Assembly (NCBI GenBank): GCA_965242865.1
Contig: CBDETK010000013.1
Location: forward strand, 3,552,001 to 3,616,000
Source of the DNA: Candidatus Latescibacterota bacterium
GTDB lineage: Bacteria; Latescibacterota; UBA2968; UBA8231
Direction of reading: 5' to 3'
Length of the DNA: 64,000 bases
This document shows positions 39,671-59,389 of this stretch, piece by piece (position 1 is the first letter of the stretch; every line of letters begins with the position of its first letter). The notes below the pieces were generated by a model that was not told the origin of the DNA, did no database searches, and saw only the letters and a list, made by a program, of their open reading frames with translations. Both the position numbers and the translations under genes were made by a program.

Positions 39671-39729
39671 GATTTCAAAGGGCAACCACGTCATTGATTC
39701 CAAAGGGCAACCACGAGGGTTGCCCCTAC
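39671..39729 (-). repeat. REP-like element, family A (GTAGGGGCAACCCTCGTGGTTGCCC) with partial 25-bp duplication
   Basis: GTAG + GGGCAACC/GGTTGCCC hairpin overlapping the SBP stop codon; aaagggcaaccacg occurs twice. Confidence 0.7.
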
Positions 39730-43360: not shown

Positions 43361-45091
43361 TTAAGTATCCGCAAGCTGAGTTTTGAACAACTCCCAGTAG
43401 TGGCCTTTTTTCTCGATCAATTCGGCATGGGTGCCTTTCTCGACAATTTTTCCCTCGTCCATGCAGACGATCTCATCAACTTCTCGGATGGCACTGAGCC
43501 GGTGGCTAACGATGATGACCGTCTTGTCGTCGGCTTGGCCCTTGAGCCGGCGCAACAGCTTCTCCTCGCTCTCCGAGTCAAGGGCTGAGGTCGCCTCGTC
43601 CAGCACTACAATCTCAGGGTTTTTCAGCATCGCCCTCGCTAGTGCTATCCGCTGTTTCTGCCCACCCGACAGGTTGGCTTTAGAGTCGCATACCGTCGCC
43701 AAGGAGTCTTCGGGCGCGTGGATATCCGCGCCTTTGATCTCAAGTTCCGCCGCCGTGCGTTCAACCTCTTCTTTAGAACTATCCAACCGACCATAGCGTA
43801 TGTTTTCGAGCACCGAATCGCGAAAGAGCGGTGCTTCTTGCGACACCAAGCCGATGCGGTCCCGGTACTTGCCCAGACCAAAGGCCCTGCACGGCGCGTC
43901 GTCTATGGCGATCTCGCCTTTTTGCGGTTGGTAAAAACGACACAACAGATCGACGACCGTGCTTTTGCCGCAACCGCTCGCGCCGACGAGCGCGTACGTC
44001 TTGCCCTTTTCAATCTCTAAGTCAAAATGGCTGAGTACGGGGTGACCGTTGTAGGCAAACTCCACATCTTTGAACGCTATCTTCTCTTTGAACGAGAAGG
44101 GTTTGGCCTGCTTTGGCTCTACGTCAACCTCGGCTGGTACATCCATGAATTCCACAATCCGCCGCAGGGAAACCGACGCCCGTACGCAGTCTATGTACAG
44201 TTGGTTCAGGCTCTCTAAGGGGGCGAAGATGCGCATGAAGTACTGGAAAAAGGCGATGAGTGCCCCCAAACCGATCTCGCCCTGCATGACTTGATGCCCT
44301 CCCCAACCGAGGATGACGACAGGGGCCAAGGACATGATAAAGGACGCGATGGAACCAGCGGAAAGATTCAACGCGGTGCTGTGCATCTCCAGCTCGAACA
44401 ACTTCCCTTGTCGGCTGCCCAATTTGTCGCTCTCGTGCCTGTACGTGTTGTACGACTGGACGAGTTTGATGTTGTCGAATCGCTCAATAAAAAAACCTAG
44501 TATATCCGAAGTCGTGCGCTGGGTTGTCTCGGCCACCTTGCCTATTTTCGGCTGGAAGTACTTGAGATTCACGATGAAGCAGGGCACGAGCAGGCTCAGG
44601 CCGAGGAAGAGGGGAGCGTCCAGCCATATCAGCACCGCCCCCAAGCTGACCAGCGTCAGCACGCTGTTGACGAGCCTCAGTACGCTGGAGGTGAGCGTTT
44701 TCTGGACGACCTGCACATCGTTGTTGAGCCGATGGGCAATATCCCCGGTCTTGTTGCGTTTGAAGAAATTGAGCGGCAGGCGCAACAGGTGGCTGAACAA
44801 CTCGCTCCGCATCTCGAACACGACGCGATTGCCGACCCAGAGGTAGAGATAATTGGCGATGAAAGCACTGATGATGTTCAGGGCCATCATACCGAATAGG
44901 GTAGCCAGCAGGATGCCCAGCAGATAGTAATCTTCGTCGGGCAGCACTTCGTCAATGAGGATCATCAGGATATAGGGGAAGGCGAGTGAACTGGCTATCG
45001 CTAAAACCATGAAGACGAATACGATTGAACTTTGCCACCAGTACGGTTTGATGTACCGGGCGAAGCGCATTGCAAATTCTTTGAATACCAT
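43361..45091 (-). CDS. ABC exporter (TMD + NBD, no C39 domain)
   Basis: GASGCGKST, LSGGQKQR, LDEATSALD, SHRL. Confidence 0.95.
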   Translation of the reverse strand: MVFKEFAMRFARYIKPYWWQSSIVFVFMVLAIASSLAFPYILMILIDEVLPDEDYYLLGILLATLFGMMALNIISAFIANYLYLWVGNRVVFEMRSELFSHLLRLPLNFFKRNKTGDIAHRLNNDVQVVQKTLTSSVLRLVNSVLTLVSLGAVLIWLDAPLFLGLSLLVPCFIVNLKYFQPKIGKVAETTQRTTSDILGFFIERFDNIKLVQSYNTYRHESDKLGSRQGKLFELEMHSTALNLSAGSIASFIMSLAPVVILGWGGHQVMQGEIGLGALIAFFQYFMRIFAPLESLNQLYIDCVRASVSLRRIVEFMDVPAEVDVEPKQAKPFSFKEKIAFKDVEFAYNGHPVLSHFDLEIEKGKTYALVGASGCGKSTVVDLLCRFYQPQKGEIAIDDAPCRAFGLGKYRDRIGLVSQEAPLFRDSVLENIRYGRLDSSKEEVERTAAELEIKGADIHAPEDSLATVCDSKANLSGGQKQRIALARAMLKNPEIVVLDEATSALDSESEEKLLRRLKGQADDKTVIIVSHRLSAIREVDEIVCMDEGKIVEKGTHAELIEKKGHYWELFKTQLADT

Positions 45092-45118: not shown

Positions 45119-45463
45119 TCAGTAGAGTAGGTGCTTGACCGAACTCAAATCGGCCTTGTTGGTGATGACATCGTAGTACTTCACGCCTTTGAAGTTGAAA
45201 GCGAGCGGCTCGACCAAGTCGAACCAAGGCTTCAACTCGTTGTAGAAGATGACCGAAAGATGCGGCTTCTCCTGCACGGGAATATGGACGTTGACGACCG
45301 TGTTGTTCTCATCAATTACAAACACGGCTGGGGTCGGTTCGCCAAAGGGCGTCTCGTTGAAGTATCCGGTCGTGTCCGACGCCACCGGAAACGCAATCTG
45401 AAAAGTCCGCACATAGTCCGAGAACTTCCGCTTGCTCATCCTCGCGATGCAGTAGATGGGCAT
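45119..45463 (-). CDS. C-terminal half of an AhpC/TSA thioredoxin-like fold (possibly truncated)
   Basis: FPVASD...TPAVFVIDEN; no CxxC; no clear RBS. Confidence 0.5.
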   Translation of the reverse strand: MPIYCIARMSKRKFSDYVRTFQIAFPVASDTTGYFNETPFGEPTPAVFVIDENNTVVNVHIPVQEKPHLSVIFYNELKPWFDLVEPLAFNFKGVKYYDVITNKADLSSVKHLLY

Positions 45464-45568
45464 CGGCTGATGACGGCAACCTGCGCGACGCGTACGATGC
45501 TGTGGGGTGCTGTCGATGGGAACGGTGGACGATGCGGGAAACTAATCTGCGAGTTGCGGAACCGCCGT

Positions 45569-46216
45569 TTACGAAGTGAAGTACCGATCCAGCCAGTCTC
45601 GGATACCCTGCTCCGTCGCCTCTTCGTCGTCTTGGTCGCTATAGTGCCAGTTGAGCACCTCAAAGGCGTCATCTACTACAAACCAGACCGGCACGGACGA
45701 CCGGGCGTCCGACTGGAACAGCAGGGCTTCGAGTTGCTGCTCGGCCACGAAGGTGAAGGCGAAGGGCACGATACCCACCTTGTTCTTGATGGCGATCTGC
45801 TGCTTGATGTGTTCGTTGGCGTCGCCTACGACCAACAGCAATTTGCCGTGAGAGACGCCCTGCTGCGCCATGGCCTGCTTCCACTGGTCGAGTTGGGCAA
45901 ACAGGCAGGCTCCACAGGTCCGGCTCGTCGATACAACTACGACAAAAGGCTGGCCGTCCTCGGCGGCCGACTCGTCGAACTGGGCGAAGCGGCCCAAGTC
46001 CACCGATTCGAGCAGCTTGCGGTGTAGTTTGTTCTTGAGGGCGGCGTTGACCTCGTAGTTCCACTGGACGGTTTCCAAGTGTTTTAGCCGCTCGTTGAGG
46101 GTCTCCAACTCGTCGAGTCTGTCGGTATTGTCTCGGTGCAGGGCCAAGGCGACTGAGCCGAGGCCGAGAGACAACAGTAGCAGGGCTTTGGTTAGCTGAG
46201 TGGCATTCATGGTCAT
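45569..46216 (-). CDS. Membrane-anchored thioredoxin-like (CxxC) protein
   Basis: N-terminal hydrophobic anchor, TCGAC, VPVWFVVD; AAGGAG RBS. Confidence 0.7.
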   Translation of the reverse strand: MTMNATQLTKALLLLSLGLGSVALALHRDNTDRLDELETLNERLKHLETVQWNYEVNAALKNKLHRKLLESVDLGRFAQFDESAAEDGQPFVVVVSTSRTCGACLFAQLDQWKQAMAQQGVSHGKLLLVVGDANEHIKQQIAIKNKVGIVPFAFTFVAEQQLEALLFQSDARSSVPVWFVVDDAFEVLNWHYSDQDDEEATEQGIRDWLDRYFTS

Positions 46217-46228
46217 GGTCTCCTTATT

Positions 46229-47404
46229 CTACTGGCCGCCCCGCGAGCGGCTGAACGCACTCTTGCCAGCTCCCGTGCGATCGTTGATTCGATAGATGGC
46301 TACGTATGGATCGCTCGTCTCGCCGGTCGCTTCGTCGAGGGCATCCTCAACCACAAAATACAGTTCCATACCGTCAACCGTCAGCAGTCTATGGCTGGCG
46401 GGTAATCTGATGCCGTCGGCAACCGAATGGCCGTCCTTGTAAAAGAGATTTAGATAGTATTCCGGCTTACCGTTAACCACACGCCGGTATTGTGTAAGCA
46501 CCAGCAGGTCGGGACCGAATTCATAGAGTCGGGAACGGACAATGTGCTCGGCAAACCATTCGTTGTGCCGAGCGGTCCAATTGACCGGATCCAAGTCGGC
46601 GGGAAAAGGCTTGATCCGGTCCCGGTGCTTAGACTGGTACTCGCTAAACCAAGTCCGTTCCAACTGGCCCTGCTCGCTGTATTGGTGGATCTCGTAGGTC
46701 GTCGGGTAGATGAAGTAGAAGCCGCCTCCCCGCTTGGGAGTGAGCACGGTGTTATGATAGCGATTCAACGCCCGTCCGGTTCGTTTGTCTTCGACCGGAT
46801 ACAGGCCGGCAACTTTATTGAGGTTGTCGTCGAAGCGGAACAGCGCGTATTGGCCTTCCGCTCGCACCCCGGCCGAGCCGGCGTCAATGACGTCCACTTG
46901 TGCGCCATAAATATGGCCACCCGTGGTGAGCACAATATGGTCAATGAACTCAGGGTTGGGATCTGGCACCTGCCGCTTGAATTTATATGAATCGCCAGAG
47001 AAGAAGAGATATTTCCTACTTTCTCCCAAGCTGTAGAAATAGAAGTCTCCGTTAGGGGCCAACCGTGGTCTTAATGGATTGAAGTATTCGTCCTCGGCTC
47101 CTCCACGCACTCCAATTTGCCGCAGGTAATGGCCCTCGGCATCGGTCTGAAAAATCATATTCTGGATACCATCTAAAACAATGAGGTTGCCCTTAGCATC
47201 AACGAAGACGTAGCTAATCTGGCCCACAATGACATGCTCAGGCATTTGCAAATGGATGTCCCGATCCTTGACGAATGCCTCGTCAAACGTAAGGTCGGCT
47301 GCCGGTGGGGTGATTTCTATCCGGCCAGCAGGCTGGTCATCACCGCATCCGACCAGAGGCACCATAGTACCGACGATTGCGATGAACTGTATCCGATTTT
47401 TCAT
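46229..47404 (-). CDS. 6-bladed beta-propeller lipoprotein
   Basis: Lipobox LVGC; IGVRGGAEDEYFNP NHL-like blade; YEIHQYS. Confidence 0.75.
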   Translation of the reverse strand: MKNRIQFIAIVGTMVPLVGCGDDQPAGRIEITPPAADLTFDEAFVKDRDIHLQMPEHVIVGQISYVFVDAKGNLIVLDGIQNMIFQTDAEGHYLRQIGVRGGAEDEYFNPLRPRLAPNGDFYFYSLGESRKYLFFSGDSYKFKRQVPDPNPEFIDHIVLTTGGHIYGAQVDVIDAGSAGVRAEGQYALFRFDDNLNKVAGLYPVEDKRTGRALNRYHNTVLTPKRGGGFYFIYPTTYEIHQYSEQGQLERTWFSEYQSKHRDRIKPFPADLDPVNWTARHNEWFAEHIVRSRLYEFGPDLLVLTQYRRVVNGKPEYYLNLFYKDGHSVADGIRLPASHRLLTVDGMELYFVVEDALDEATGETSDPYVAIYRINDRTGAGKSAFSRSRGGQ

Positions 47405-47476
47405 AACATTTTCCTTGTGGATGGTTGGTGTTGAGCCACTATGTATTCATAAGGCTCAGTACCCGAAGATTCAGAG

Positions 47477-47512
47477 GAGTGGACCGGGGATCACTTTGAC
47501 CCCGGTCCACTC
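47477..47512 (-). other. Strong stem-loop downstream of peptide ORFs, module 1 (no U-tract)
   Basis: gagtggaccgggg-atcactttga-ccccggtccactc; near-identical copy at 52215-52250. Confidence 0.75.
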
Positions 47513-47598
47513 GCTCGTCAACGGCTCGGTGGTTGTTTAGCTACCCCTCCAGTGGCGATTCTATCGAATCAAGCAGGGCGGAAGGGCCTGCTGACTGA

Positions 47599-47742
47599 CT
47601 AGCCGCAGCAGCAGCAGAGGCGGCCCTCTCCAGAGCAATCAGCTTTCGGAGGACTGCTTTCGCAGATGGAGAGGGCGAATTCCAGCTGCGCCTCGACGGC
47701 CTGGCCGTAGGTGGCGCGTTGGGGTTTGTGCAGAGCGATCAT
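47599..47742 (-). CDS. Putative RiPP precursor, 47 aa: MIALHKPQRATYGQAVEAQLEFALSICESSPPKADCSGEGRLCCCCG
   Basis: AAGGAG RBS before ATG 47742; leader-like N-terminus shared with paralogues; six Cys in the C-terminal part. Confidence 0.8.
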   Translation of the reverse strand: MIALHKPQRATYGQAVEAQLEFALSICESSPPKADCSGEGRLCCCCG

Positions 47743-47938
47743 GATTATGCTCCTTGAGTAAGTGAATGGTTCTATTGAACCAAAGGGGGACGCCAAGGGC
47801 GTCGCGAAAGGGCCTCCTTATGAGAACCCTTGATAGGGCTGATACAGGCAGCGTCATGTTACGAGAAGGAACGGCAGATGCCTGCGTGGCTTCAATGGCC
47901 GAGCCGTAGCTTGTATTTACGGATGGATGCAGGGACAT
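47639..47938 (-). CDS. Precursor paralogue MSLHPSVNTSYGSAIEATQ... (long tail probably read-through/degenerate)
   Basis: GAGGAGG RBS; LH-x6-YGxA[IV]EA motif shared with 47599-47742; 3' part overlaps that ORF out of frame. Confidence 0.5.
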   Translation of the reverse strand: MSLHPSVNTSYGSAIEATQASAVPSRNMTLPVSALSRVLIRRPFRDALGVPLWFNRTIHLLKEHNHDRSAQTPTRHLRPGRRGAAGIRPLHLRKQSSES

Positions 47939-47971
47939 GGCTTCAGACCTCCTCGACTGTGAACGCTAGCT

Positions 47972-48052
47972 TTACCAGCGCGCCCCGAAAAAGGGCCACT
48001 GCACAGACCGCCGAAAGCGGCGGCGGTAACGGCGGTTGATAACGCGGTTCAT
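47972..48052 (-). CDS. Arg/aromatic-rich 26-aa peptide MNRVINRRYRRRFRRSVQWPFFGARW
   Basis: AAGAGGAGG RBS; first ORF after the sigma-54 promoter; translated by hand. Confidence 0.6.
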   Translation of the reverse strand: MNRVINRRYRRRFRRSVQWPFFGARW

Positions 48053-48149
48053 TGTTCCCTCCTCTTATGGGGTGGATGGAAAGCCTGCCCGTCGGCCCCT
48101 ATTCCTTAGTGGCCAACAACAGCTTGCTTTCGTGTTCACTTACTATATA

Positions 48150-48166
48150 AGCATATTCCGTGCCAA
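48150..48166 (-). promoter_or_regulatory. Sigma-54 -24/-12 promoter (module 1)
   Basis: TTGGCACGGAATATGCT, GG-N10-GC. Confidence 0.85.
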
Positions 48167-48256
48167 ACTGATTCTTGATAAAAGATAAACTACTAATAAA
48201 CATATACTTATAAAAAATTAAGGCACTTCATGCCAAACGCTGAATCGCGCTTCAAT

Positions 48257-48355
48257 TGCACCCTTTCGACGCACCTAACCCCCCATTTGCTCTCTATTTC
48301 TATTTTTTACAACAGTTTAGAGCAAGTGCGTTAAAAAGGACGCAGTGCGTCAAGG
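48257..48355. promoter_or_regulatory. Candidate bEBP enhancer sites (module 1)
   Basis: tgcaccctttcgacgca (48257) and tgcgttaaaaaggacgca (48327), 70 bp apart; conserved in module 2. Confidence 0.7.
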
Positions 48356-48603
48356 TCGACTTGGTCCACGACGAGTAGCGGAGTTAGAAACCAATCCTTT
48401 TTTAATGCGCTAACACCCATTCTCGCCTACTGCGTTCTGGCCGAGGCGTCCCCCTTAGTGTGCGTCTAAGACGGGAGGAGAATGGGGAGTGGAGGAATTG
48501 AAATTGAAACCGGACAACTTTACAGGTGAATGGACCGGACTGCGGATCTGGGCCTTAGAGCCTCTTTTCGTCCTCGCAATTTACGAGGTGGAGTAGCACC
48601 CTT

Positions 48604-49644
48604 TTATCTTAGAGATGAGAGATGCGAAAGCACCTCACCCAAGAGCGCGAACTCATCCTTTCTCAGGCGGCATAGTTCATCTTGGGCAAACGTTCGACCT
48701 TCCTTGGCCTTTTTGCCTCTCATCTGGTTTCTCAACACAACCATGCGGATCTGATTTGCGCGGCTGGCGATATCCGAGTATCTCCGGGCAAAACCGACCT
48801 CTTCGGGCAGGATCCCTTGGCCCTCCATGTACTCCAGCCGAGCGACCATGCACTTTTTGTGCTCCCAGAAAATACGCAAGGAGATAAGCAGCTCGTCCTC
48901 GGTCGCCTCCGGCTCATCAAGCAGCCCTGCGAGGAACTGGTAAGTATCCATCCCCCACAGGTCGCCGCGGTTTCTCGGTTCGGCGAGTATCCGCAACCGC
49001 GTTGAGGTGTTGCGAGACAGGTAGAGGTCGGTCAATTCCTCCCGGGCCTGCACTAAGTCAAAAGCACACTCAGCAGACGACCGGTAGTAGTAGAGCACAA
49101 CTTGAGGATTCTCAACCTTGTCCTGTAGCCAATCAGGGCCACCCTCCGGCCTAAACGCCGTGGATAACGCCCGCTCAAACTCGGCGAACCCCACGGCGAA
49201 ACGGCCGTAGCTCCCATCGCGGCCGTAGCCCGACGCAGTAAAAGTGCCTTGTCGCCAGTCAAAGCCGCTCAAAAGCAGTTCGTGAAGAAAATGAACCCGT
49301 TGGTAATACACGCCCTGTGGAATGTAAAAGTAGTCCACATCCAACTGCACGTAGTAATCCCTTTCGAGGCACTCCAAGACGAATTTTGTGACTTCATCCG
49401 GCTTGTCCCCGGCCAGTCGCCGGTCAACCCTATTGGATTCGAGCAAAGGGCAGGTGGAGAACTCTCGATAAAACGGATGGAGGTAGAAATTCAGCCCCCG
49501 TCCCTCAAACTGTCGCAACTGGATATAGTGACAATAGAACCACGGCCGGTACGCTGTGTCGCGGGCGAGGATCGAAAGCGGGTATAGATGGTGCATATAC
49601 CCGGTGATGGGCGGTTTGCCGATGGGCAAACACTTTTTCGTCAC
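48604..49644 (-). CDS. BtrH-like (papain-fold) putative acyltransferase/peptide-modifying protein
   Basis: YYVQLDVDYFYIP...HFLHELLLSGFD pattern typical of BtrH_N/C39-like folds; GTGA overlap with the GT4 gene. Confidence 0.55.
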   Translation of the reverse strand: MTKKCLPIGKPPITGYMHHLYPLSILARDTAYRPWFYCHYIQLRQFEGRGLNFYLHPFYREFSTCPLLESNRVDRRLAGDKPDEVTKFVLECLERDYYVQLDVDYFYIPQGVYYQRVHFLHELLLSGFDWRQGTFTASGYGRDGSYGRFAVGFAEFERALSTAFRPEGGPDWLQDKVENPQVVLYYYRSSAECAFDLVQAREELTDLYLSRNTSTRLRILAEPRNRGDLWGMDTYQFLAGLLDEPEATEDELLISLRIFWEHKKCMVARLEYMEGQGILPEEVGFARRYSDIASRANQIRMVVLRNQMRGKKAKEGRTFAQDELCRLRKDEFALLGEVLSHLSSLR

Positions 49645-50900
49645 GACGCGATCCTCGCTTTCGCGTCCGTGGTTCCTTGGAGGAGACGCATTAGCCGCCG
49701 TGCGGAAGCAGACCAGCTAAATCGAGGTCGATCCGGGGGGATTTGGGGCGGAAAACCAACCGTATAGGCTTGAGCCAATAGCCTCACCAGCGAATCAGCA
49801 TCGTCGAGTCCGTAATACCGCCCCTGCTTGCCTACCACCTCGTTCATTATCGGAATGTCGGGAACAATGACTTCCGTCCCGCAGGCCAACGCCTCCACCG
49901 CTGGCAGGCAAAAGCCCTCATCTACCGACGAGATCACCAGTGCTGCGGCACTGTGGTATAGAGCAGCCAGTTCGTCGTCGTCAACCCGACCGAGGAACCG
50001 GACTTGCTCCCCCAAGGCATTGGCTGCGACGGACCGTTCCAATTCGCTTTGGTACGCCCCGTAATCCCCCACCATCACCAACGGAGGACACAGCCCCCGC
50101 TCGGCCTTGAGCTCGGCCAACACCGAAAAGAGCCAGTCCAACCTTTTGCGCTTGTGTGCTAGCCCTACAAAGAGGAAGAACGGGGATTTTAGGCCGTGCT
50201 GGACCAGTACTCGGGCGATGGTTTCGCCATCCCGCTGGCCGCTGAAAATGCGCTCGTCAGCCGCCCCCGACACCACATCAATCTTCTCGTTGGAGATGCC
50301 GAGTATCTGTACAATGTCTTGCTTGACCGTATTGGAAACAGTGATCACCCCTTCGCATTGGGTCGCTAAACGTCTGTTCATAGCCCAGAAATAGTGGTGG
50401 AACACTTCTTTGCCTTCGGGCACATCCCCAAATCCAACTGTGTTGTGTCCAAGACGCTCACACGCCATCCTCATTTGCTCAAACTCCGACCGGCCGAATT
50501 TGGCTTGGAACGCCGCATCCGTATAGGTCGATAGATCGGGGTGCTTGAGCCGGATTAGGTCGTGGATAGTGAATATGTAGGGAACGGGCAGCAACGGATC
50601 AACGATATAATGGATTGAGTAGTACAAATTGACCCCTTCCCGGATAAGCCAATTCCGCAACCACGACGAATCGCGCACAAATCCACCGTCGTCCGGCACT
50701 TCCACGAAGCGGAGCCGACGAGTCAAACGCGGATTTTTCAGATCGGCTGCGATTTCACCACTGCGTCCCGGCCAAGCGATCACGGTCAGGCGGTAATCTC
50801 CATCGATTTCGTCGGCATCCAGCGCGTGCAACAGGGAAGTGCCATAGCGATAGATGCCGCTATAGTGGGTCGTGCGTAGGTCAAAGGCTAAATGGGTCAT
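49641..50900 (-). CDS. GT4 (GT-B) glycosyltransferase
   Basis: TIHDLI, ITVS, FVG, EGFCLPAVEALACG. Confidence 0.92.
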   Translation of the reverse strand: MTHLAFDLRTTHYSGIYRYGTSLLHALDADEIDGDYRLTVIAWPGRSGEIAADLKNPRLTRRLRFVEVPDDGGFVRDSSWLRNWLIREGVNLYYSIHYIVDPLLPVPYIFTIHDLIRLKHPDLSTYTDAAFQAKFGRSEFEQMRMACERLGHNTVGFGDVPEGKEVFHHYFWAMNRRLATQCEGVITVSNTVKQDIVQILGISNEKIDVVSGAADERIFSGQRDGETIARVLVQHGLKSPFFLFVGLAHKRKRLDWLFSVLAELKAERGLCPPLVMVGDYGAYQSELERSVAANALGEQVRFLGRVDDDELAALYHSAAALVISSVDEGFCLPAVEALACGTEVIVPDIPIMNEVVGKQGRYYGLDDADSLVRLLAQAYTVGFPPQIPPDRPRFSWSASARRLMRLLQGTTDAKARIAS

Positions 50901-50954
50901 GGTATCTCACTCCTTAGCAACGGGAATAGGGAAGCCTAGCAAGTTCTCATGTTG

Positions 50955-51392
50955 TTAGCGGTCGGCTGGAATTTCCCGCTCCTTCTGCACCAACAGCGTT
51001 GCAGCACCCCCAGCCAACAACAAACCGCGCAACAGTGCCCAACCCAGCGAAGCACCCTCGTCGCCACCAAAACAACCGCACGTCACCTCGTTGCCGCGGT
51101 ACATATTGATGCCGAGCGCCGCACTAAAAACCACCAGTAGCCCCAAGATGACCAAGGCGTTACTGCGCGACCAGATGCCCAAGAGCAGAAGGCCGCCGGC
51201 AATCAGTTCAACCCAGACGACCGACAGCGCAAACGGCGCAGCCCAATCCACCGGGAGCATATCAAAGGCCGCGACCGTCTCGACGAAAGACGGTATTTGC
51301 ACGAGCTTTGCACTCCCCGCCCAAACAAAGACACCGCCCAACACCAGCCGGACCGTCAGAGCCAGATAGGGCCTGAGTGCAAGTCTGTCCAT
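50955..51392 (-). CDS. MauE/DoxX-family membrane protein
   Basis: RLVLGGVFVWAGSAK, VELIAG, CGCFG; TAATG coupling to the rhodanese gene. Confidence 0.88.
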   Translation of the reverse strand: MDRLALRPYLALTVRLVLGGVFVWAGSAKLVQIPSFVETVAAFDMLPVDWAAPFALSVVWVELIAGGLLLLGIWSRSNALVILGLLVVFSAALGINMYRGNEVTCGCFGGDEGASLGWALLRGLLLAGGAATLLVQKEREIPADR

Positions 51393-51868
51393 TAGAAAGG
51401 ACCCTCCGATTCCACGGGATAACCCGCTTCTTCCCATTGGGGAAATCCGCCCGCGAAGACGTAGATCTGCGTAAAATCCATCTCCGTTGCGAGCTTTTGC
51501 GCCAGTTTGGAGCCCAAGTTACACGTCGTCCCTGAACAGTAAACGACCAGCGCGGTATCCTTGGACAAGTCGGCCAATTCCGCGCCAAAAGCGGCGAGAA
51601 TCTCCGACGGTGGGACATTAAGAGCCCCGGGCACATGCCCCAACTGGTAGGGCCAAGAAGACCGAGCGTCCACGAACACAGCCGCCCTTTGGTCCAAGAG
51701 CCGTTTGGCCGTTGCTAAATCAATCAGATGCACACCATTTTCGGGCCGCTGGACCTCTTCTATTGCCAAGCTATGCAGTCCGCCGCTGGAGACGCCGATC
51801 GCCACTACCAGCAATGCCTTTCCAACAATTCGCTTCATCACAGCGAATCCCCTTTCTCCGGTAGTCAA
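51392..51868 (-). CDS. Exported rhodanese-like domain protein
   Basis: VDARS, GHVPGALNVP, VYCSGTTC, GGFPQW. Confidence 0.88.
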   Translation of the reverse strand: MTTGERGFAVMKRIVGKALLVVAIGVSSGGLHSLAIEEVQRPENGVHLIDLATAKRLLDQRAAVFVDARSSWPYQLGHVPGALNVPPSEILAAFGAELADLSKDTALVVYCSGTTCNLGSKLAQKLATEMDFTQIYVFAGGFPQWEEAGYPVESEGPF

Positions 51869-52137
51869 ACCCCTATTGGCGGTACTTTGCCGCGCACGAA
51901 TTCGGCGATGGAACGCACCGACACAAACCGTTCCGCCCGCAGTTCCTCGTCTTCCACATCAATGGCAAAGTGCGTTTCCAAGGCCATGACGAGCTGTAGC
52001 ATGACTATTGAATCAGCCCCCAGACCATCACCCAACAGCAACTCGTCGTCCGCGATAGCCTCCGGTTCGATCTCCAGTTCAAGAGCTTGGACGATAACCT
52101 GTTTGATCTGTGCTTCGAGTTTCATCTCGATGTCCAT
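51865..52137 (-). CDS. Stand-alone acyl carrier protein
   Basis: GLGADSIVML phosphopantetheine Ser motif; acidic, 90 aa. Confidence 0.9.
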   Translation of the reverse strand: MDIEMKLEAQIKQVIVQALELEIEPEAIADDELLLGDGLGADSIVMLQLVMALETHFAIDVEDEELRAERFVSVRSIAEFVRGKVPPIGV

Positions 52138-52214
52138 GATCGCCTATTCTTCCGTTTGCGGCGCACGAAACATGCTTCGTGAGGGCATGCTTTAGAAATA
52201 CCCGAAGATCAGCG

Positions 52215-52250
52215 GAGTGGACCGGGGATCACTTTGACCCCGGTCCACGC
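52215..52250 (-). other. Stem-loop downstream of peptide ORFs, module 2
   Basis: gagtggaccggggatcactttgaccccggtccacgc. Confidence 0.75.
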
Positions 52251-52269
52251 GCTCATCAACGGCTCCGTT

Positions 52270-52375
52270 CTACCGAACTAAGTCGTGCCAGCAAGACCGA
52301 CAAGGAACGATGGCGCCCTACGTGTCAACACAGGCCGGACCGTAGCTTGTATTTACGGATTGGATGCAGAATCAT
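52270..52375 (-). pseudogene. Degenerate precursor paralogue (as written: 16 aa MILHPIRKYKLRSGLC, 52325-52375)
   Basis: One extra base relative to the 47938 copy; corrected frame reads MILHPSVNTSYGPACVDT*GAIVPCRSCWHDLVR*; GAGGAGG RBS. Confidence 0.55.
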
Positions 52376-52409
52376 GGCTTCAGACCTCCTCTACCTTGGC
52401 TACCCAGGG

Positions 52410-52475
52410 CTAGGCCAGCGGGGACTGTTCGTCGAGCCGACGATACCTGATTTCGGCTAAGGGGTGCAGAGTCAT
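52410..52475 (-). CDS. 21-aa peptide MTLHPLAEIRYRRLDEQSPLA
   Basis: AAGAGGAGG RBS; LH-x6-Y motif; first ORF after the module-2 sigma-54 promoter. Confidence 0.6.
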   Translation of the reverse strand: MTLHPLAEIRYRRLDEQSPLA

Positions 52476-52565
52476 GGCGGACCTCCTCTTTATAGGGTGG
52501 ATGGAAAGCCGGCCCTTCAGCAGGTGCGGCCAAACGGCTTGCTTTCGCGCTCACCTATACACCAT

Positions 52566-52582
52566 AGCACATTCCGTGCCAA
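52566..52582 (-). promoter_or_regulatory. Sigma-54 -24/-12 promoter (module 2)
   Basis: TTGGCACGGAATGTGCT, GG-N10-GC. Confidence 0.85.
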
Positions 52583-52670
52583 ACGGAGCCGCAAAGCCGT
52601 AATTGATTGTTATACAAAGGGTTATAGAAAATGGGGGCCTTTCGTCCAAGTCGCCGAGTCGCGCTTCCAT

Positions 52671-52766
52671 TGCACCCTTTTGACGCACCTAACGACCTGT
52701 TTTATTTGTATCTCACGTCTTTACAATGGCTTAGAGCAAGTGCGTCAAAAGAGCCGCAGTGCGCTA
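52671..52766. promoter_or_regulatory. Candidate bEBP enhancer sites (module 2)
   Basis: tgcaccctttTgacgca (52671) and tgcgtcaaaagagccgca (52741), 70 bp apart. Confidence 0.7.
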
Positions 52767-52845
52767 AAAGTGACCGCGGGGGCCGTTGCGTGAGTTGCTC
52801 TCAATCGTTACGCTCAGGTTTATCCTTCGTTTGAGGAGTCGCGCC

Positions 52846-54582
52846 ATGCTTGGATCCTACCCCCGCATTCCCTACGGTTGGGCCGATTTCCGGGCCATCC
52901 GCTTGGAAAAGCGTCTCTACGTGGATAAGACGCGCTTTGTCCACGCCTTGGAAGAGGAGCGCTACGTCTTTTTCATTCGGCCGCGTCGCTTTGGCAAGTC
53001 CTGCTGGGTGTCCCTGCTGGCCAACTACTACGACCGCACCCGCGCCGACGACTTTGATGCCGTCTTCGGCGGCACGGACCTCGGCAATAATCCCACCGCC
53101 AACCGCCATCGCTACGTCGTCCTGCGCTTCAACTTTTCGACGTTCAAAAACGCCTTGGAAACCCTCGAACACTACTTTGGAGAGTATTGTCAACTGGTGG
53201 TTCGGCACGCGCTGGAGCGCAACCGAGATTTGTTTCCCGAGGCGGCACGGCGGCACATTCGCTCGTCGAGTTCGGTCAATGGCCAGCTCAACGAGCTATT
53301 CTTGTACGCCGGCGATCACGGCATTCGGCTGTACGTGCTCATTGACGAGTACGACAACTTTGCCAACACGGTGCTGGCGCACCACGGCGAGGCGGCCTAT
53401 CAGTCGTTCACGCACGGCGGCGGCTTCTACCGCAACTTTTTTGCCACGCTCAAGGGCGGCACGGAACAAAGTCGCGGCGGCTTGGAGCGGCTGTTCATCA
53501 CCGGGGTGTCGCCGATTACCATGGACGACGTCACCAGCGGCTTCAACATCGGCCGCAACATCAGCCTGCGGCCGGAGTTCAACGACCTGCTCGGCTTCAC
53601 CGAGGAGGAGGTGCGAAGCCTGCTGGAGCTGTACCTCGACCACGGCGTGTTCAATCAGGATGTCGAAGGCGCGCTGGCGGTGATGCGCGAGTGGTACAAC
53701 GGCTATCGGTTCGCCAAGAGTGCCCAAGGCGACCTCTACAACACCGACATGGTGCTCTATTTCCTCGCTGAATCCATTCCGAACAAACCCATGCCGGACG
53801 AATTGATCGACACCAATGTCCGCATCGACTACGGCAAGTTGCGCCACTTGCTGACGGTCAACCGCCAACTCAACGGCAACTTCGACCTGCTACGCCACAT
53901 CATCGGCGAGCAACAGGTAGATACCCCCCTCCAACTCAGCTTCCCCCTCGACCGACTCGACCGGCGCGAAAACTTCCTGTCCCTGCTGCATTACTTCGGT
54001 CTGCTCAGCATTCGGGGGGTGTCGCAGGGGGTGCCGCGGTTAGGCATTCCCAACCAAACGGTCAAGCGGCTGATGTACGGCTACCTGCGCGATGGATACG
54101 ATGATGTGGGGGTGTTTTCCGTCGATGGGTACACCTTCTCCCGCTTGGTGCGCGAGATGGCCTACGAAGGAGCTTGGCGACCGGTATTGGACTTTCTGCG
54201 CGACGCCCTCGCCGAACAAACCGGCATCCGCGACTACATGGACGGCGAAAAGGTCATCCACGGCTTTGTCGCCGCGCACTTGAGCATGGTCGCTCAGTTT
54301 CTGCTCCACTCCGAGTACGAACTGAACAAGGGCTATGCGGACCTGTACTTGGAGCCGTTCCTCGCCCGATACCCCGATATGCGGTTCGGCTATGTGCTCG
54401 AACTCAAGTATGTGAAACGAAGCGATCCCCTCGGCGAATCCGTCGCCGCGGCCAAGGTGCAGGAAGCCGTGCTTCAGTTGCGCGGCTACTTGGCGGACCC
54501 GTCCCTGCGCCGCGGCCACCCGGCGGTGCGGCACATTGGCTTGGCGGCGGTGTTTCACGGCTGGGAGTTGGTTGCCTACTAA
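52846..54582 (+). CDS. AAA-ATPase-like + PD-(D/E)XK nuclease domain protein
   Basis: YVDKT, RPRRFGKS, LIDEYD, FITGV, WYNGY, SEYELNKGYADL, LELKY; GAGGAG RBS. Confidence 0.9.
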   Translation: MLGSYPRIPYGWADFRAIRLEKRLYVDKTRFVHALEEERYVFFIRPRRFGKSCWVSLLANYYDRTRADDFDAVFGGTDLGNNPTANRHRYVVLRFNFSTFKNALETLEHYFGEYCQLVVRHALERNRDLFPEAARRHIRSSSSVNGQLNELFLYAGDHGIRLYVLIDEYDNFANTVLAHHGEAAYQSFTHGGGFYRNFFATLKGGTEQSRGGLERLFITGVSPITMDDVTSGFNIGRNISLRPEFNDLLGFTEEEVRSLLELYLDHGVFNQDVEGALAVMREWYNGYRFAKSAQGDLYNTDMVLYFLAESIPNKPMPDELIDTNVRIDYGKLRHLLTVNRQLNGNFDLLRHIIGEQQVDTPLQLSFPLDRLDRRENFLSLLHYFGLLSIRGVSQGVPRLGIPNQTVKRLMYGYLRDGYDDVGVFSVDGYTFSRLVREMAYEGAWRPVLDFLRDALAEQTGIRDYMDGEKVIHGFVAAHLSMVAQFLLHSEYELNKGYADLYLEPFLARYPDMRFGYVLELKYVKRSDPLGESVAAAKVQEAVLQLRGYLADPSLRRGHPAVRHIGLAAVFHGWELVAY

Positions 54583-54950: not shown

Positions 54951-56228
54951 TCAATTTGAGGGCGGGATTTGCTTGCCCTGCGGGTCTTGCTCGTCGCTGA
55001 TTTGCGCGCCCAACTCGGCGGCCAGCTCGCCGCCAATAAAGTGTTCAATCGCGTCGGCCGGGGCGTGGACGTGGTCTTTGGGGAGGCCCAACTGGCTCAT
55101 ATAGGTCTCCCAAAGCCGGTGATTGCGCAGCAGGCGCAGCGCGGCTTGTTGGCCCTTGGCAGACAAGCCGACGAGGCCATTGGCCTCGCTCAGCAGGTGC
55201 CGCCGCCGCAGGTTGCCAACCGCCAGCCGCGCCAGCAGGCCCCAAACAGCCGCGACCGCCACGAGCTCGGCCGGCCGCAGCCCCGCGCGCTCAGCCCCGC
55301 TTTCCTCGCGTCGCACCAAGGCGAGCAGTATGTGGTCTTGCGCCACTTGCAGGGATAGCCGCACGCGCTGGTAGATCCGCGCCAGCACGCCCTGATTGGG
55401 CGAAAAAAGCAGGGAAAAGACAAAGACCGCGCCGATGACCACCACCATGGCCCCGGCGATGGAGCTATTCCACAGGCTGGCCAAAAAGTAGCCCGCCACC
55501 GCCGAGACCACGCCAAAGAACGCGGCCAACCCCAGCACCGCGATGAGCCGGTCGCTCCACAGGTACGCGGCAGCCCCGGGCACGATCAGCATGGCCACGA
55601 CTAAGATCGCGCCGACCGCCTCAAACGACGCCACCGTCGTCAGGGCGACCAACCCCATCAAGAGATAGTGCATCAGGGTGGCGTTGATCCCCACCGACAT
55701 GGCCATGGCCGGATCAAACGCGGAAATTTTGAATTCCTTGTACAAAAGCGCGACCACCGTCAGATTGATCGCGAGCACCGCGCCCAATATCCACACCGGG
55801 CGCGGCCCCAGCGACGTATCGCCCCACAGCAGCAGGTCCCAAGGGGTATAGGCGATTTCGCCGTAGAGCACGCACTCCTGATCGAGATCGACTTGGCCGG
55901 CATACGCGGTAATGATCACCACGCCCAGCGCGAACAGCGCGGTAAACACAATGCCGATGGCCGCGTCCTCCTGCACGCGCCACCGCCGGTGAAACGCCTC
56001 GACCAACAGCGCGGTCACCAAGCCTAAGACGGCCGCGCCCAAAAACATCGGCAGCACCGCCCGGCTGCCCGACAGCAGGAAGGCCACGGCGATCCCGGGC
56101 AGCACCGAGTGGCTCAACGCGTCGCCCAACAGTGCCATCTTGCGCAGCACCAAGAAGGTGCCCAACAAGCCACAAGACGCGGTGACCAACGCGCCAGTGA
56201 GCACGATCCAGAAAGCCCCTTCGCTCAT
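54951..56228 (-). CDS. Mn/Zn/Fe ABC permease (TroD-like) with C-terminal DtxR-type domain
   Basis: DALSHSVLPG; C-terminal HRLWETY...ADAIEH. Confidence 0.9.
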   Translation of the reverse strand: MSEGAFWIVLTGALVTASCGLLGTFLVLRKMALLGDALSHSVLPGIAVAFLLSGSRAVLPMFLGAAVLGLVTALLVEAFHRRWRVQEDAAIGIVFTALFALGVVIITAYAGQVDLDQECVLYGEIAYTPWDLLLWGDTSLGPRPVWILGAVLAINLTVVALLYKEFKISAFDPAMAMSVGINATLMHYLLMGLVALTTVASFEAVGAILVVAMLIVPGAAAYLWSDRLIAVLGLAAFFGVVSAVAGYFLASLWNSSIAGAMVVVIGAVFVFSLLFSPNQGVLARIYQRVRLSLQVAQDHILLALVRREESGAERAGLRPAELVAVAAVWGLLARLAVGNLRRRHLLSEANGLVGLSAKGQQAALRLLRNHRLWETYMSQLGLPKDHVHAPADAIEHFIGGELAAELGAQISDEQDPQGKQIPPSN

Positions 56229-56417
56229 TCGCCCCCCCCCGGCGGCAGTGGCTCCATCCCCGTACCCGTGGGGGCGTCCCCCTGTGGACGCCCTCCCTTC
56301 CCTCGCTCATTCGCCCCCCCCCGGCAGTAATGGCTCCATCCCCGTACCCGTGGGGGCGTCCCCCTGTGGACGCCCTCCCTTCCCTCGCTCATTCGCGCCC
56401 TCCCCGGCGGTAGTGGC
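56221..56417. repeat. 82-bp tandem repeat (about 2.4 copies), each unit with a REP-like hairpin and a C9 tract
   Basis: tcgctcattc at 56221, 56303, 56385; gtgggggcgtccccctgtggacgccc hairpin. Confidence 0.9.
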
Positions 56418-57717
56418 TGCCGGTGCCGTGGATATTGACGATCCGGGCCGGGTCCAACCCTTGCTCGCGCTTGAGGATGTCCTCTAGCTCGGCAATGATT
56501 TCCGGCGTCAGCAAGTGCTCCACCTCGTCGGCCGGCCGATCCACGTGATCCGCGTCGAGTATATCCCGATAATACAAGTAGTGTTCCCACAAGCGGTGCG
56601 ATTTAACCACGAACAGCCCTTCCTCCGCGCCGGTGGCCGTTAGGACGAAACGCCCGTCTCGGGGCGCGACCAGCCCCTTTTCGGCGAGCTGCCGCCCGAG
56701 GCGTTTGACCCGGTCGGGCGACAGGCCCATCTCAATGGCCAGTTCCTCCACGGCCCAGGGGCGGCTCGTTCTTAGCTTCTCTTGCAGCTCGACGCAGGCG
56801 CGCAAAAAGTGCTGCTGGCTCTCGCGGCGGCTGTTGTGCCGCTGCCGCCGCCACCGCGCCAACACCCCGCGCCGGGGCGCGAAAAGAGCCGAAACCACAA
56901 AGCACCAAGTGGCGATGAGCACCATCACCGGGCCGGTGGGAACCCGCGGCACCAAGGAGCTGATGAAGGTGCCGACCACGCCAGCCAACCCCCCGAACGC
57001 AGCCGCGAGCAGGACCATCTCGTGCAACCGCTCGGTCCAAAAGCGCGCTGCCACGGCCGGCGTGATGAGCATGGCCGCAATCAGCACCACGCCGACGGCC
57101 TGCAAGCCGACGATCACCGTCAGGGCAATAAGCCCCATGAGCAGGGCGTCGATCCAGCGGGATGAGTACCCGAGTGTCTGCAAGAAGTCCGCGTCGAAAA
57201 TCAGGGCCTTGAACTCCTTAAAAAACAGGGCCACTGCGAGGAGGATGAGGACCGCCAGTGCGCTCATGACGCGCAGGTCGTCTTCTACCAGCGAGGCCGC
57301 TTGCCCAAAGAGGAATTTGTCCAAGCCGCTCTGATTGCCCGTGCCGACCCGCTGAACGTGGGTCAACAGCACGATGCCCACGCCAAAAAACACGGACAGG
57401 ACAATGCCGATGGCTGAATCGGCCTTGACGCGGGTAAAGTTGATGATGAACTGCATCACCAACACCCCGAGCACCCCGGAAATCGCCGCGCCCGCCAGCA
57501 GCACCGGCAGGGCCTTGCTCCCAGTCCACAAGTAGGCCAACGCCACGCCCGGCAGGGCCGCGTGCGCCAGCGCGTCGCCGACGAGGCTCCGCCGCCGCAA
57601 CACGGCAAACGACCCCAGCAACCCGCCAGTCGCGCCGATCAGCAGGGCGCCGAAGAGCACGAAGCGCACGTTGGCGTCGGCCAAGCTCAAAAAGCGCAGG
57701 GCGTTTTCGGCGATCAC
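56389..57717 (-). CDS. Mn/Zn/Fe ABC permease (TroC-like) with C-terminal HTH/DtxR-type domain
   Basis: DALAHAALPG; HRLWEHY...ADEVEH; GTG start inferred. Confidence 0.9.
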   Translation of the reverse strand: MIAENALRFLSLADANVRFVLFGALLIGATGGLLGSFAVLRRRSLVGDALAHAALPGVALAYLWTGSKALPVLLAGAAISGVLGVLVMQFIINFTRVKADSAIGIVLSVFFGVGIVLLTHVQRVGTGNQSGLDKFLFGQAASLVEDDLRVMSALAVLILLAVALFFKEFKALIFDADFLQTLGYSSRWIDALLMGLIALTVIVGLQAVGVVLIAAMLITPAVAARFWTERLHEMVLLAAAFGGLAGVVGTFISSLVPRVPTGPVMVLIATWCFVVSALFAPRRGVLARWRRQRHNSRRESQQHFLRACVELQEKLRTSRPWAVEELAIEMGLSPDRVKRLGRQLAEKGLVAPRDGRFVLTATGAEEGLFVVKSHRLWEHYLYYRDILDADHVDRPADEVEHLLTPEIIAELEDILKREQGLDPARIVNIHGTGSHYRRGGRE

Positions 57718-57719
57718 GG

Positions 57720-58490
57720 TCAACTCTCGCGCCGCTGCTCCGCCATGGCTTGGGCGGCCTGCGAGAGCACGGTCAGCCGACCGCCGTAGGTCTTTTGCAG
57801 GTTGTCGTCGGTAAAGACTTCGCGGGTTGGGCCGGATGCCACGACCCGCATGTTGAGCATGATGACCCAGTCGAAGTATTCGGTCACCGTCTGCAAGTCG
57901 TGGTGAACCACTAAGATGGTTTTGCCCTGCTGGCGCAGGGCCACCAAGCTGGCGATGATCGCGCGCTCGGTGGCCGCATCCACCCCGGCAAAAGGCTCGT
58001 CCATGATGTAAATGCGGGCCTCTTGGGCCAAGGCGCGGGCGAGAAAGACTCGCTGCTGCTGGCCGCCCGACAGCTGGCTGATCTGCCGCTCGGCAAACGG
58101 GGCCATATCGACCTCGTCGAGGGCCGCCCAAGCGAGGCGGCGATCTTCCTTGCGCGGCCGCCGCAGCCATCCCACATGGCCATAGCGGCCCATGAGCACC
58201 ACGTCGAGCGCGCTGACCGGGAAGTCCCAATCCACGGATTCGCGCTGCGGCACATAGCCGATGATCTTGCGCATCTGGCTGTAGTCCTCGCCGTAGATTT
58301 TGACCCAGCCCGACGCCTTGGGCACGAGATCCATAATGGCCTTGATCATGGTGCTCTTGCCCGAGCCGTTGGGACCGATGATGCCGACGAGCTGCCCTTC
58401 GGGCACATCGAGGTCCACGTCCCACAGCACCGGCTTCTTGTGGTAGGCAATGGTCATGTCGTGGATTTGGATGGGATGGAGCGCGCTCAC
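57720..58490 (-). CDS. Metal ABC transporter ATP-binding protein (TroB/MntB-like)
   Basis: [31 protein letters not shown]. Confidence 0.93.
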
Positions 58491-59389
58491 CGCAAGGCTC
58501 CCACCAGGGTATTGACGTTGCTTTCGACCATGCCCACGTACGTGTCGGCGCCGCTGCCGGCCACCCCCATTGCGTCCGAGTATAGGGTGCCGCCGATTTC
58601 CACTTGGAAGCCGCGCTCCAAGCACCCTTCGCGCACCGCCTCAATCGAGCGCGCCGGCACGCTGCTCTCGACGAATATGGCCTTGACCTCGCGCTCCACG
58701 ATCAGATCGACGAGCCGAGTGACGTCGTTGACCCCGTACTCGGCCACCGTGGAAATGCCTTGCAGGCCGACGACCTCCACGCCGTAAGCCCGACCAAAAT
58801 AGCCAAAGGCATCGTGGGCCGTAATCAGCACCCGGCGGGCCTCCGGCAGCAGCGCGACCTGCTCGACGACCCATTGGTGCAGCGAGTCGAGGCGCGCTCG
58901 GTAGCGGGCGCCGTTCTGGCGATAGACCGCGGCCCCGTCCGGGTCCAGCGCGCTCAGGCGGGCCACGACCGGCTCAATCGTCTGCGCCCACAGCGATACG
59001 TCGAACCAGATGTGGGGATCAAAGTGGCCCTCAAACTCCGGGGGACGCAGCAAGCGCTCTTTCGGTAGGTGCTCGGCCACGGCCAACACCTGCTTGCGGC
59101 GGGCCATTTTGGCGAACACATCTTCGAGCTTGCCTTCGAGGAAAAGGCCGTTGAAGAGAATCAAATTCGCGGCCGTTAGCTTGGCCAAATCGCCCTGCGA
59201 TGCCTTGTAGTAATGCGGATCAACGCCCGGGCCCATCATCCCGACAACCGCGATGCGATCGCCGCCGATGTTCCGAGCGAGGTCGGCCACCATTCCCGTG
59301 GTACACACCACCTCGATCTGTTGGTCGCCGCGCTCGGGTGCGCCGCACCCCAACGCGCACGACAAAATGAAAATGAAAATCCAGCGCAT
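58487..59389 (-). CDS. Metal-binding lipoprotein (TroA/MntA-like)
   Basis: Lipobox ALGC; GVDPHYY, DPHIWFD, TAHDAF, YSDAMG. Confidence 0.93.

Follow-up and report, generated by a model that had tools for sequence, protein, structure and literature searches.

How many of the five micro-open reading frames (ORFs) found between positions 47599 and 52475 of a 64,000-nucleotide (nt) stretch of DNA from Candidatus Latescibacterota bacterium (contig CBDETK010000013.1, positions 3,552,001 to 3,616,000; here called the window) are genes? An earlier note had read all five, which start at 48052, 47938, 47742, 52475 and 52375, as an array of diversifying precursors of peptides that are made on ribosomes and modified after translation (RiPPs), with a common LH-x6-Y leader motif. 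Overall, the locus is probably best described as two paralogous regulatory cassettes, A and B, with one functional precursor gene in cassette A (ORF3, 47742-47599), the other four ORFs being relics or upstream ORFs (Table 1). We confirmed that all five lie on the minus strand at the claimed starts with the translations given, and that each ATG is preceded at 6-10 nt by a strong ribosome-binding site (GGAG, GAGG or AAGGAG). The 48052 ORF indeed lacks LH and has RYRR in common with the 52475 ORF, and the 52375 ORF is a frameshifted copy, which yields ...LHPSVNTSYGPA only when an extra base soon after its ATG, a 1-nt indel relative to cassette A in the alignment, is ignored. The shared motif held up at start sites only. 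Over six frames of the window, LH-x6-Y occurred 7 times compared to 5.0 +/- 2.0 in 100 shuffles, so that the bare motif is not special, while three of the seven occurrences were found at N-termini preceded by a Shine-Dalgarno sequence, compared to a shuffle mean of 0.05 (maximum 1).

The leader and hypervariable-core pattern became visible only when the 47742 ORF was compared with homologues from other genomes. Behind 11 of the cassette promoters (see below) lies an ORF of 43-48 amino acids (aa), which starts M[IT]ALHKP[EQ]RATYGQAVEAQ, with a variable C...C...CC segment at its end. Twelve intact ORF3 homologues of this length were found in 8 genomes, with M1, L4, H5, K6, R9, Y12, Q14, V16, E17, A18, E21, C36, G40, C44 and C45 invariant; the 19-aa leader of the own copy reads MIALHKPQRATYGQAVEAQ, compared to a family consensus of MIALHKPxRATYGQAVEAQ. 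A profile built from the 12 intact ORFs matched 9 of the 31 genomes of the genus, with 1-4 copies each, and exactly one ORF (47742) in the own genome. One ORF of the five is a member of this family, located beside the S8-DUF1611 and BtrH-like genes that the earlier note named; precursor arrays exist across genomes (up to four per genome, in G007), not inside this window. Against 5.8 billion proteins, 60 of 61 candidates fell at E <= 0.01, all of them unnamed and none with a Pfam domain, and the family is narrow, because only 11 of 1.84 billion cluster representatives matched at E <= 0.001. Across 55 intact precursors, leader columns had mostly <1 bit of entropy and core columns around 3 bits (about 2-3.8), and the cores were 24-30 aa long with four cysteines (43 of 55) or six (12 of 55), never an odd number.

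Codon usage also marks ORF3 as a gene. Of the 21 variable sites in its leader DNA, 11 were third positions of codons; the 21 extra codon types there gave 10 extra amino acid types, compared to 15 and 17 in the shifted frames. On a contig of a near-identical strain, the four ORF3 differences (codons read by eye) were three synonymous changes and G13D, a variant also present elsewhere in the family. Pfam and NCBIfam searches with the micro-ORFs returned nothing significant, and the precursor had no NCBIfam match even at E <= 1. Judged by these patterns, 47742-47599 is a genuine leader-plus-core precursor gene of a diversifying family: a conserved leader with a variable core was found for this ORF and for none of the other four, and both a protease (S8-DUF1611) and an ATP-binding cassette (ABC) exporter are located in the same gene string. 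The likely product would be a leader-cleaved, exported, disulfide-rich peptide. The papers searched describe neither this precursor family nor a peptide system with S8-DUF1611, although cluster tables supplementary to PMC12993501 and PMC9426513 may list the cluster.

The likeness among the five ORFs, as read from the alignments, rests on DNA-level paralogy of the two cassettes and not on five independent genes. Repeat finding and pairwise alignment identified cassettes A (48349->47471) and B (52763->52209) as copies, 71% identical, connected by the direct repeats D1 (74%), D4, D5, D8, D15, D16 and D20, with a gap of ~310 nt in B at the position where A holds ORF3. They are the only cassette copies in the own 6.0-Mb genome. 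Each opens with a conserved upstream block of ~185 nt, followed by a sigma-54-type promoter, a conserved 5' leader and a 13-bp stem-loop. Counted along the cassettes, the first ORFs (after a shared ribosome site) are those at 48052 and 52475, the second those at 47938 and 52375, and the third, in A only, that at 47742. Between the five, the proposed fixed N-terminus with hypervariable C-termini was not recovered; the C-termini are unlike one another owing to broken or non-homologous frames.

The promoter pattern TGGCACG-N5-TGC was found 31 times in the window and the related clusters, up to seven times in one ~40-kb cluster (G007), and 30 of the 31 have in common a ~200-nt upstream block (CGCACTGCG, TGACGCA, TGCGTCGAAAGGGTGCAAT and an A/T-rich stretch), which may act as a binding site for an enhancer-binding protein. 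The own genome encodes rpoN (PF04552, 201 bits) and the cluster a sigma-54 activator (PF00158 match at 36116-37516); with motif, sigma factor and activator all present, the cassette promoters are predicted to be sigma-54-dependent. A palindrome within the upstream block, GACGCACTGCGTC (window 48339-48351), came up in the terminator scan and is more likely an activator binding site than a terminator, because its half-site TGCGTC/GACGCA recurs in the block. Cassette DNA matched 9 of 24 same-genus genomes and none of 16 genomes from other genera of the class, and all matching public contigs were metagenome-assembled genomes of Candidatus Latescibacterota or Latescibacteria; the near-identical strain contig came from a run labelled sponge metagenome. 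At three other cassette promoters (locus L021 of G009 at 11521 and 16165; L019 of G019 at 2310), a propeller lipoprotein gene follows directly with no precursor gene between. G009 has cassettes and propellers and gave no match to the precursor profile; a short ORF, MTRHKYPGPLCWDSRKPIY, 3' of the L021 16165 promoter may be a precursor remnant. On the opposite strand, a predicted AAA-ATPase and PD-(D/E)XK nuclease protein (52786-54582; PF09820 + PF08011) abuts the upstream block of cassette B.

Between promoter and ORF3, the 11 A-type cassettes had a mean column identity of 80%. Over 36 pairs from nine cassettes, mean pairwise identity of the 5' leader was 0.79, compared to 0.74 for the adjacent propeller gene overall and 0.57 at its four-fold sites. 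These values indicate that the leader DNA is constrained even though the ORF1 and ORF2 frames are not kept. In the A-type cassettes both frames are broken by indels of 1, 2, 8, 12 and 13 nt. ORF1-A was shifted in frame by 1-nt indels in 6 of 11 cassettes and lost its stop in a seventh; its variable sites by codon position were [2,0,1], with 5 extra codon types compared to 4 extra amino acid types. For ORF2, a YG.A.EA-like reading persisted in 7 of 11 cassettes, while the other 4 were frameshifted within 17 codons; its stop positions varied, it had no third-position signal ([5,5,3] and [4,3,1]), and all three strain-contig differences in its frame were non-synonymous (codons read by eye). Because of the frame-breaking indels and the missing codon-position signal, neither ORF1 nor ORF2 is judged to be retained as a protein. 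In ORF2-A, which overlaps ORF3 out of frame, the 99-aa open frame was considered as a real overlapping gene and rejected, its frame being lost in relatives; in some genomes ORF2 is fused in frame with ORF1 or ORF3, and gene callers then give 109- and 147-aa fusions. In our reading, ORF2 goes back to an old tandem copy of the precursor 5' end that has since decayed, because its start DNA resembles that of ORF3 (CTGCAC...TACGGCC..GCC.TCGA.GCC) and a TTGGTTC-RATAGAAC motif follows both units. The earlier note had named, as an outcome that would count against the motif, conservation no higher than that of flanking non-coding DNA. This is what we found for 48052, 47938 and 52375, because the entire 5' leader is ~79-80% identical, and not for 47742.

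The 52475-type ORF (uORF-B, the upstream ORF of cassette B) behaves differently from ORF1-A, its positional counterpart. It recurs in G007, G019, G002, G009 and G020, before an RND-type pump gene (MTLHPLAEIRYRR...) and before an operon of redoxin-like and ABC genes (MTLHPLVQIRYIFG...). Its three within-subtype indels were all 6 or 12 nt long, and over codons 1-11 in six sequences the variable sites were distributed [2,1,6], with 9 extra codon types compared to 3 extra amino acid types. Two subtypes, B1 and B2, are separated by a 2-nt indel after codon 10, and uORF-B has no cysteines. From these six sequences, uORF-B is a conserved ORF that is probably translated.

Both cassettes end in a 13-bp stem-loop, which in A directly follows the precursor gene. 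Across 12 cassette copies, the stem was paired in 94.2% of cells, and 6 of its 13 pairs were changed on both sides; none of 500 shuffles reached the observed values, and slid controls were 26-49% paired. The hairpin after the precursor is supported by covariation. An Rfam 15 scan of 46000-54000 gave one match at chance level (E = 0.91) and placed the 5' leader in no Rfam family.

Table 1 Cassette features and neighbouring genes, by position in the window
Feature	Position	Strand	Remarks
Upstream activator region, cassette B	52582-52763	minus	Direct repeat D1, 74%
Sigma-54-type promoter B	52566-52581	minus	TGGCACGGAATGTGCT; GG-N10-GC (-24/-12) element
uORF-B	52410-52475	minus	21 aa, MTLHPLAEIRYRRLDEQSPLA; positional counterpart of ORF1-A
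ORF2-B relic	52325-52375	minus	In-frame MILHPIRKYKLRSGLC; 1-nt insertion compared to ORF2-A
Stem-loop of cassette B	52215-52250	minus	D4; block 93% identical to that of A
Acyl carrier protein (ACP)	51865-52137	minus	
Rhodanese-domain protein	51392-51868	minus	
MauE/DoxX membrane protein	50955-51437	minus	
GT4 glycosyltransferase	49641-50900	minus	
BtrH_N/peptidase C39-like protein, 346 aa	48604-49644	minus	Weak Pfam match (E = 0.075); atlas feature score 0.98 to BtrH_N/C39_2 clusters
Upstream activator region, cassette A	48166-48349	minus	Blocks CGCACTGCG, TGACGCA, TGCGTCGAAAGGGTGCAAT and A/T-rich block; direct repeat D1 with copy B
Sigma-54-type promoter A	48150-48165	minus	TGGCACGGAATATGCT; GG-N10-GC
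Conserved ~400-nt 5' leader	47743-48140	minus	Holds ORF1 and ORF2; conservation over 11 cassettes
ORF1-A, first upstream ORF	47972-48052	minus	26 aa, MNRVINRRYRRR..., in full MNRVINRRYRRRFRRSVQWPFFGARW; reading frame not conserved
ORF2-A	47639-47938	minus	MSLHPSVNTSYGSAIEA...; 99-aa open frame, leader-like in first ~17 codons only
ORF3, precursor peptide gene	47599-47742	minus	47 aa, MIALHKPQRATYGQAVEAQLEFALSICESSPPKADCSGEGRLCCCCG; 19-aa leader and 28-aa core, 6 Cys, ending CCCCG
13-bp stem-loop after precursor gene, cassette A	47477-47512	minus	No T-run
NHL-type six-bladed beta-propeller lipoprotein	46229-47404	minus	Lipobox L-x-G-C; PF17170 22.4 bits (cut-off 22.9)
215-aa membrane-anchored protein	45569-46216	minus	CGAC (CxxC) motif
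114-aa C-terminal relic of 238-aa redoxin-like gene	45119-45463	minus	Whole in G007, G002 and G020
ABC exporter	43361-45091	minus	Permease and ATPase, no peptidase domain
S8 subtilase fused to DUF1611 P-loop domain	41426-43345	minus	DSG, HGT, GTS triad motifs; no signal peptide by inspection
Family-5 solute-binding protein (peptide/nickel type)	39726-41306	minus	
dCache-HAMP-PAS histidine kinase	37518-39662	minus	
Sigma-54-dependent response regulator	36116-37516	minus	REC-AAA+-HTH_8

The genes around the cassettes are listed in Table 1. Every one of the 11 A-type cassettes has a propeller gene behind its precursor gene, and the propeller profile matched NHL repeats in the PDB at 4.3e-11. Similarity of the core correlated with that of the adjacent propeller (Mantel test, r = 0.57, permutation p = 0.002); we rejected this correlation as evidence of co-evolution, because neighbouring genes are co-inherited. 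A predicted complex of the propeller (residues 21-391) with the precursor scored 0.02 in a run without controls. The propeller copy of cassette G007_a (L016, around 17857) is cut to 67 aa beside an intact precursor and is probably a pseudogene. In G007, G002 and G020, the 238-aa redoxin-like gene is preceded by a sigma-54 promoter and an upstream ORF of its own; the corresponding segment of the window (45119-45568) lacks the promoter and the CxxC half. S8-DUF1611 fusions were found in 20 of the 31 genus genomes, with three copies in the own genome, and identity among the in-cluster orthologues (G007, G020, G002 and G042) was 91-92%. Among public proteins, 541 homologues matched at E <= 1e-30, named at most 'S8 family serine peptidase'. 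None of 70 PF04055 (radical S-adenosylmethionine, SAM) matches lay inside the clusters of G000, G007, G002 and G019, the nearest being >100 kb away.

A different small-ORF arrangement adjoins the third S8-DUF1611 gene. At L036 (G000:C13:3218000-3237999), an 828-aa permease gene lies between a pair of 58-aa ORFs of identical sequence (minus strand, 1046-1222 and 4173-4349; MKKLTKRNRAH...ETCVYSTDKCCDPD), each behind an identical sigma-54-like promoter; a sigma-54 activator, a lipoprotein and an ABC exporter are encoded next to them. Their end, ...ETCVYSTDKCCDPD, has four cysteines in the C...C...CC layout of the ORF3 family, and they may represent a second, unrelated precursor family with the same logic. 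Elsewhere in the window, two ABC-3 metal-transporter permeases carry a C-terminal metal-binding domain of iron-dependent repressors (54951-56228 and 56389-58644; PF02742), an unusual fusion, and between the two genes an 82-nt C-rich unit (CCTTCGCTCATTCGCCCCCCCCC...) is repeated in tandem 2.3 times with 95% identity (56218-56404).

From the gene identities, the conservation patterns, the hairpin and the promoter motif we propose a working model, every biochemical step of which is conjectural. The histidine kinase and the sigma-54 response regulator would turn on all cassette promoters, possibly together with the family-5 binding protein, and the stem-loop would set the ratio of precursor mRNA to downstream read-through. 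The S8-DUF1611 protein, presumed cytoplasmic, would cut off the leader, as QhpE does on QhpC, and the core would be secreted through the ABC exporter. Its four or six cysteines would form two or three disulfides with the help of the CxxC membrane protein, MauE/DoxX and the rhodanese protein, and the propeller lipoprotein would serve as the cognate binding or immunity partner of its precursor. Cassette B, in this reading, has lost the ~310 nt with the precursor but keeps a broken leader relic (52375) and an upstream ORF (52475); it now precedes the operon of ACP, rhodanese, MauE, glycosyltransferase and BtrH-like genes.

Several results weigh against parts of this account. The coding-like pattern of uORF-B means that the other four ORFs are not all inert. 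No RNA sequencing runs covering the region were listed, and translation of ORF3 is predicted from its sequence. The best models for the S8-DUF1611 protein were QhpE (NF049966; 139.1 bits, cut-off 165) and TIGR04066 (122.8 bits, cut-off 200; residues 266-629), and both analogies are loose because the scores stay below the cut-offs. Two genomes with precursors have no intact S8-DUF1611 gene in the cluster, namely G019 (best match 35% identical and located elsewhere) and G004 (a fragment only). The 215-aa protein matched no Pfam or NCBIfam model, its thioredoxin-like reading having been made by eye from the CGAC motif. The ACP, glycosyltransferase and BtrH-like genes suggest modifications beyond a disulfide-only product. 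The stem-loop has no T-run and was not called by the consensus terminator scan, unlike an intrinsic terminator. For the 5' leader, the folding z-score was -2.25 (2 of 100 shuffles fold as well) and the covariation term amounted to -0.84 of -92.8 kcal/mol (RNAalifold); we claim no structure there because covariation is too weak.

Other explanations were weighed against the same data. The reading that each of the five micro-ORFs encodes a functional, diversifying RiPP precursor, with one leader common to all, would account for LH-x6-Y at three Shine-Dalgarno-preceded N-termini where 0.05 were expected, for the strong ribosome sites at all five, and for the maturation-type genes nearby. We regard it as barely credible, however, and largely refuted by frame loss: ORF2 is frameshifted in 4 of 11 cassettes and its stops move, ORF1 and ORF2 show no third-position bias, and a 1-nt insertion breaks 52375. 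In the own genome the precursor profile matches 47742 only, no cysteine-rich core is found in 48052, 52475 or 52375, and elsewhere the 52475-type ORF precedes pump or transporter operons and not propeller genes. The upstream micro-ORFs could instead act via their translation, as regulatory uORFs or leader-only decoy peptides, which would explain leader conservation. The frame of uORF-B, kept within each subtype by indels of 6 or 12 nt, its mostly third-position variation ([2,1,6]) and the strong ribosome sites on all upstream ORFs in every cassette are consistent with such a role, to which we nevertheless give limited credence: ORF1-A and ORF2 switch frame between cassettes with no codon bias, and the uORF-B pattern comes from 6 sequences and 11 codons, with B1 and B2 a 2-nt indel apart after codon 10. 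It is very unlikely, in our view, that neither the conserved leader nor any of the four extra ORFs has a function and that their similarity stems from recent duplication, gene conversion among cassettes and cluster transfer between species. The cassettes of G007 are the most alike (0.87-0.89), and the patchy occurrence of the cluster (9 of 31 genus genomes) fits mobility. Between species, however, the leader is 0.71-0.89 identical compared to 0.42-0.82 (mean 0.57) at the four-fold sites of the adjacent gene, and the neighbouring ORF3 core is hypervariable.

An alternative reading of the product itself is that 47742-type peptides are secreted pheromone-like signals, sensed by the family-5 protein and the dCache kinase, and not toxins or bacteriocins with propeller immunity. 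Pheromone precursors such as AgrD and ComC typically combine a conserved leader with a hypervariable core, the gene string closes with binding-protein, kinase and sigma-54 activator genes, and one activator-site block is found at all cluster promoters, as auto-induction predicts. Still, we hold signalling to be unlikely. A genome may have up to four different precursors, and a separate propeller gene goes with each of them; one kinase is for this reason unlikely to read all peptides; the correlation of core with propeller similarity also points away from signalling, although co-inheritance of neighbours explains it too. For the locus as a whole, two paralogous cassettes with one functional precursor gene remain our preferred description.

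Among described systems, the CLI_3235/TIGR04066 set comes closest; the present cluster falls outside it, having no radical SAM gene and scores below the cut-offs (the models are TIGR04065 for the precursor, TIGR04066, TIGR04068 for the radical SAM protein and TIGR04069 for the ACP-like protein). This peptide maturation system of Firmicutes is exemplified by SacP23 of Paenibacillus polymyxa (PMC10731318) and, as outlined there, has in common with the present cluster a precursor with a short leader (19 aa) and cysteine-rich core, accompanied by an ABC transporter, a subtilisin-like protease, a TIGR04066-like domain and a gene resembling that of a carrier protein. The cluster described here differs in that it has no radical SAM gene, its TIGR04066-like domain is related but no member by the NCBI threshold (122.8 bits, cut-off 200) and is fused to the S8 protease, its ACP scores 19.2 on TIGR04069 (cut-off 70) and better on generic ACP models, and its precursor does not match TIGR04065; it has in addition the propeller lipoprotein, MauE, rhodanese and CxxC membrane proteins and sigma-54 control. 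The Qhp system of quinohemoprotein amine dehydrogenase offers a second comparison: the leader of QhpC is cut by the cytoplasmic subtilisin-like QhpE before export by an efflux ABC transporter, as outlined in PMC7876137. Similar to the QhpC/QhpE/QhpF set, the cluster combines a small leader-bearing cysteine-rich polypeptide with a protease for whose S8 domain QhpE is the best NCBIfam model (139.1 bits). Unlike it, the score stays <165, there is no QhpD radical SAM protein, QhpG or dehydrogenase subunit, the core is hypervariable and no enzyme subunit, and the protease is fused to DUF1611.

MauE and MauD assist maturation of the disulfide-rich small subunit of methylamine dehydrogenase. The cluster likewise has a MauE-family protein (PF07291) near CxxC proteins and a substrate with an even number of cysteines, while mau structural genes are missing here and the link to disulfide formation would be by analogy. 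The methylamine dehydrogenase small subunit carries six disulfides, according to PMC7876137. For the pairing of a small protein gene with a propeller lipoprotein, the present cluster can be set beside a Bacteroidales arrangement. There, small 'NVEALA' proteins (PF14055) adjoin DUF5128 (PF17170) six-bladed propeller lipoproteins, and the AVEAQ end of the present leader is loosely similar; the comparison is a lead for which no paper was found. None of the 55 scanned precursors matched PF14055 even at E <= 10, and the propeller fell just under the PF17170 cut-off. Lantibiotic operons have attenuator hairpins between precursor and biosynthetic genes. Similar to these, a stable stem-loop stands directly 3' of the precursor and before downstream genes, but it has no T-run, and its effect on read-through is a proposal.

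These comparisons reduce an ambiguous list of micro-ORFs to one gene family with 55 intact natural variants, whose 24-30 aa cores are predicted to be disulfide-rich and which is covered by no Pfam or NCBIfam model. They also carry a caution for annotation: a micro-ORF may look like a leader, have a perfect ribosome site and still be a relic. The modular promoter and leader cassette, reused up to seven times per cluster, offers a system for studying control by one regulator. Latescibacterota are a phylum without cultured producers, and one survey flagged them as biosynthetically rich (PMC9426513). The S8-DUF1611 fusions constitute a large uncharacterised enzyme family that genome mining could start from. 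A possible second precursor type of 58 aa, unrelated to the first, adjoins another S8-DUF1611 copy in the own genome, and the feature uniting such systems would then be the enzyme rather than the leader. As a tentative proposal, possible rather than probable, S8-DUF1611 fusions (at least 541 homologues) may define a radical-SAM-independent maturation of leader-tagged, hypervariable even-cysteine peptides, each with a cognate NHL-propeller, in uncultivated marine bacteria, in which a portable sigma-54 promoter and leader cassette would wire the cluster and its uORFs or RNA would tune expression.

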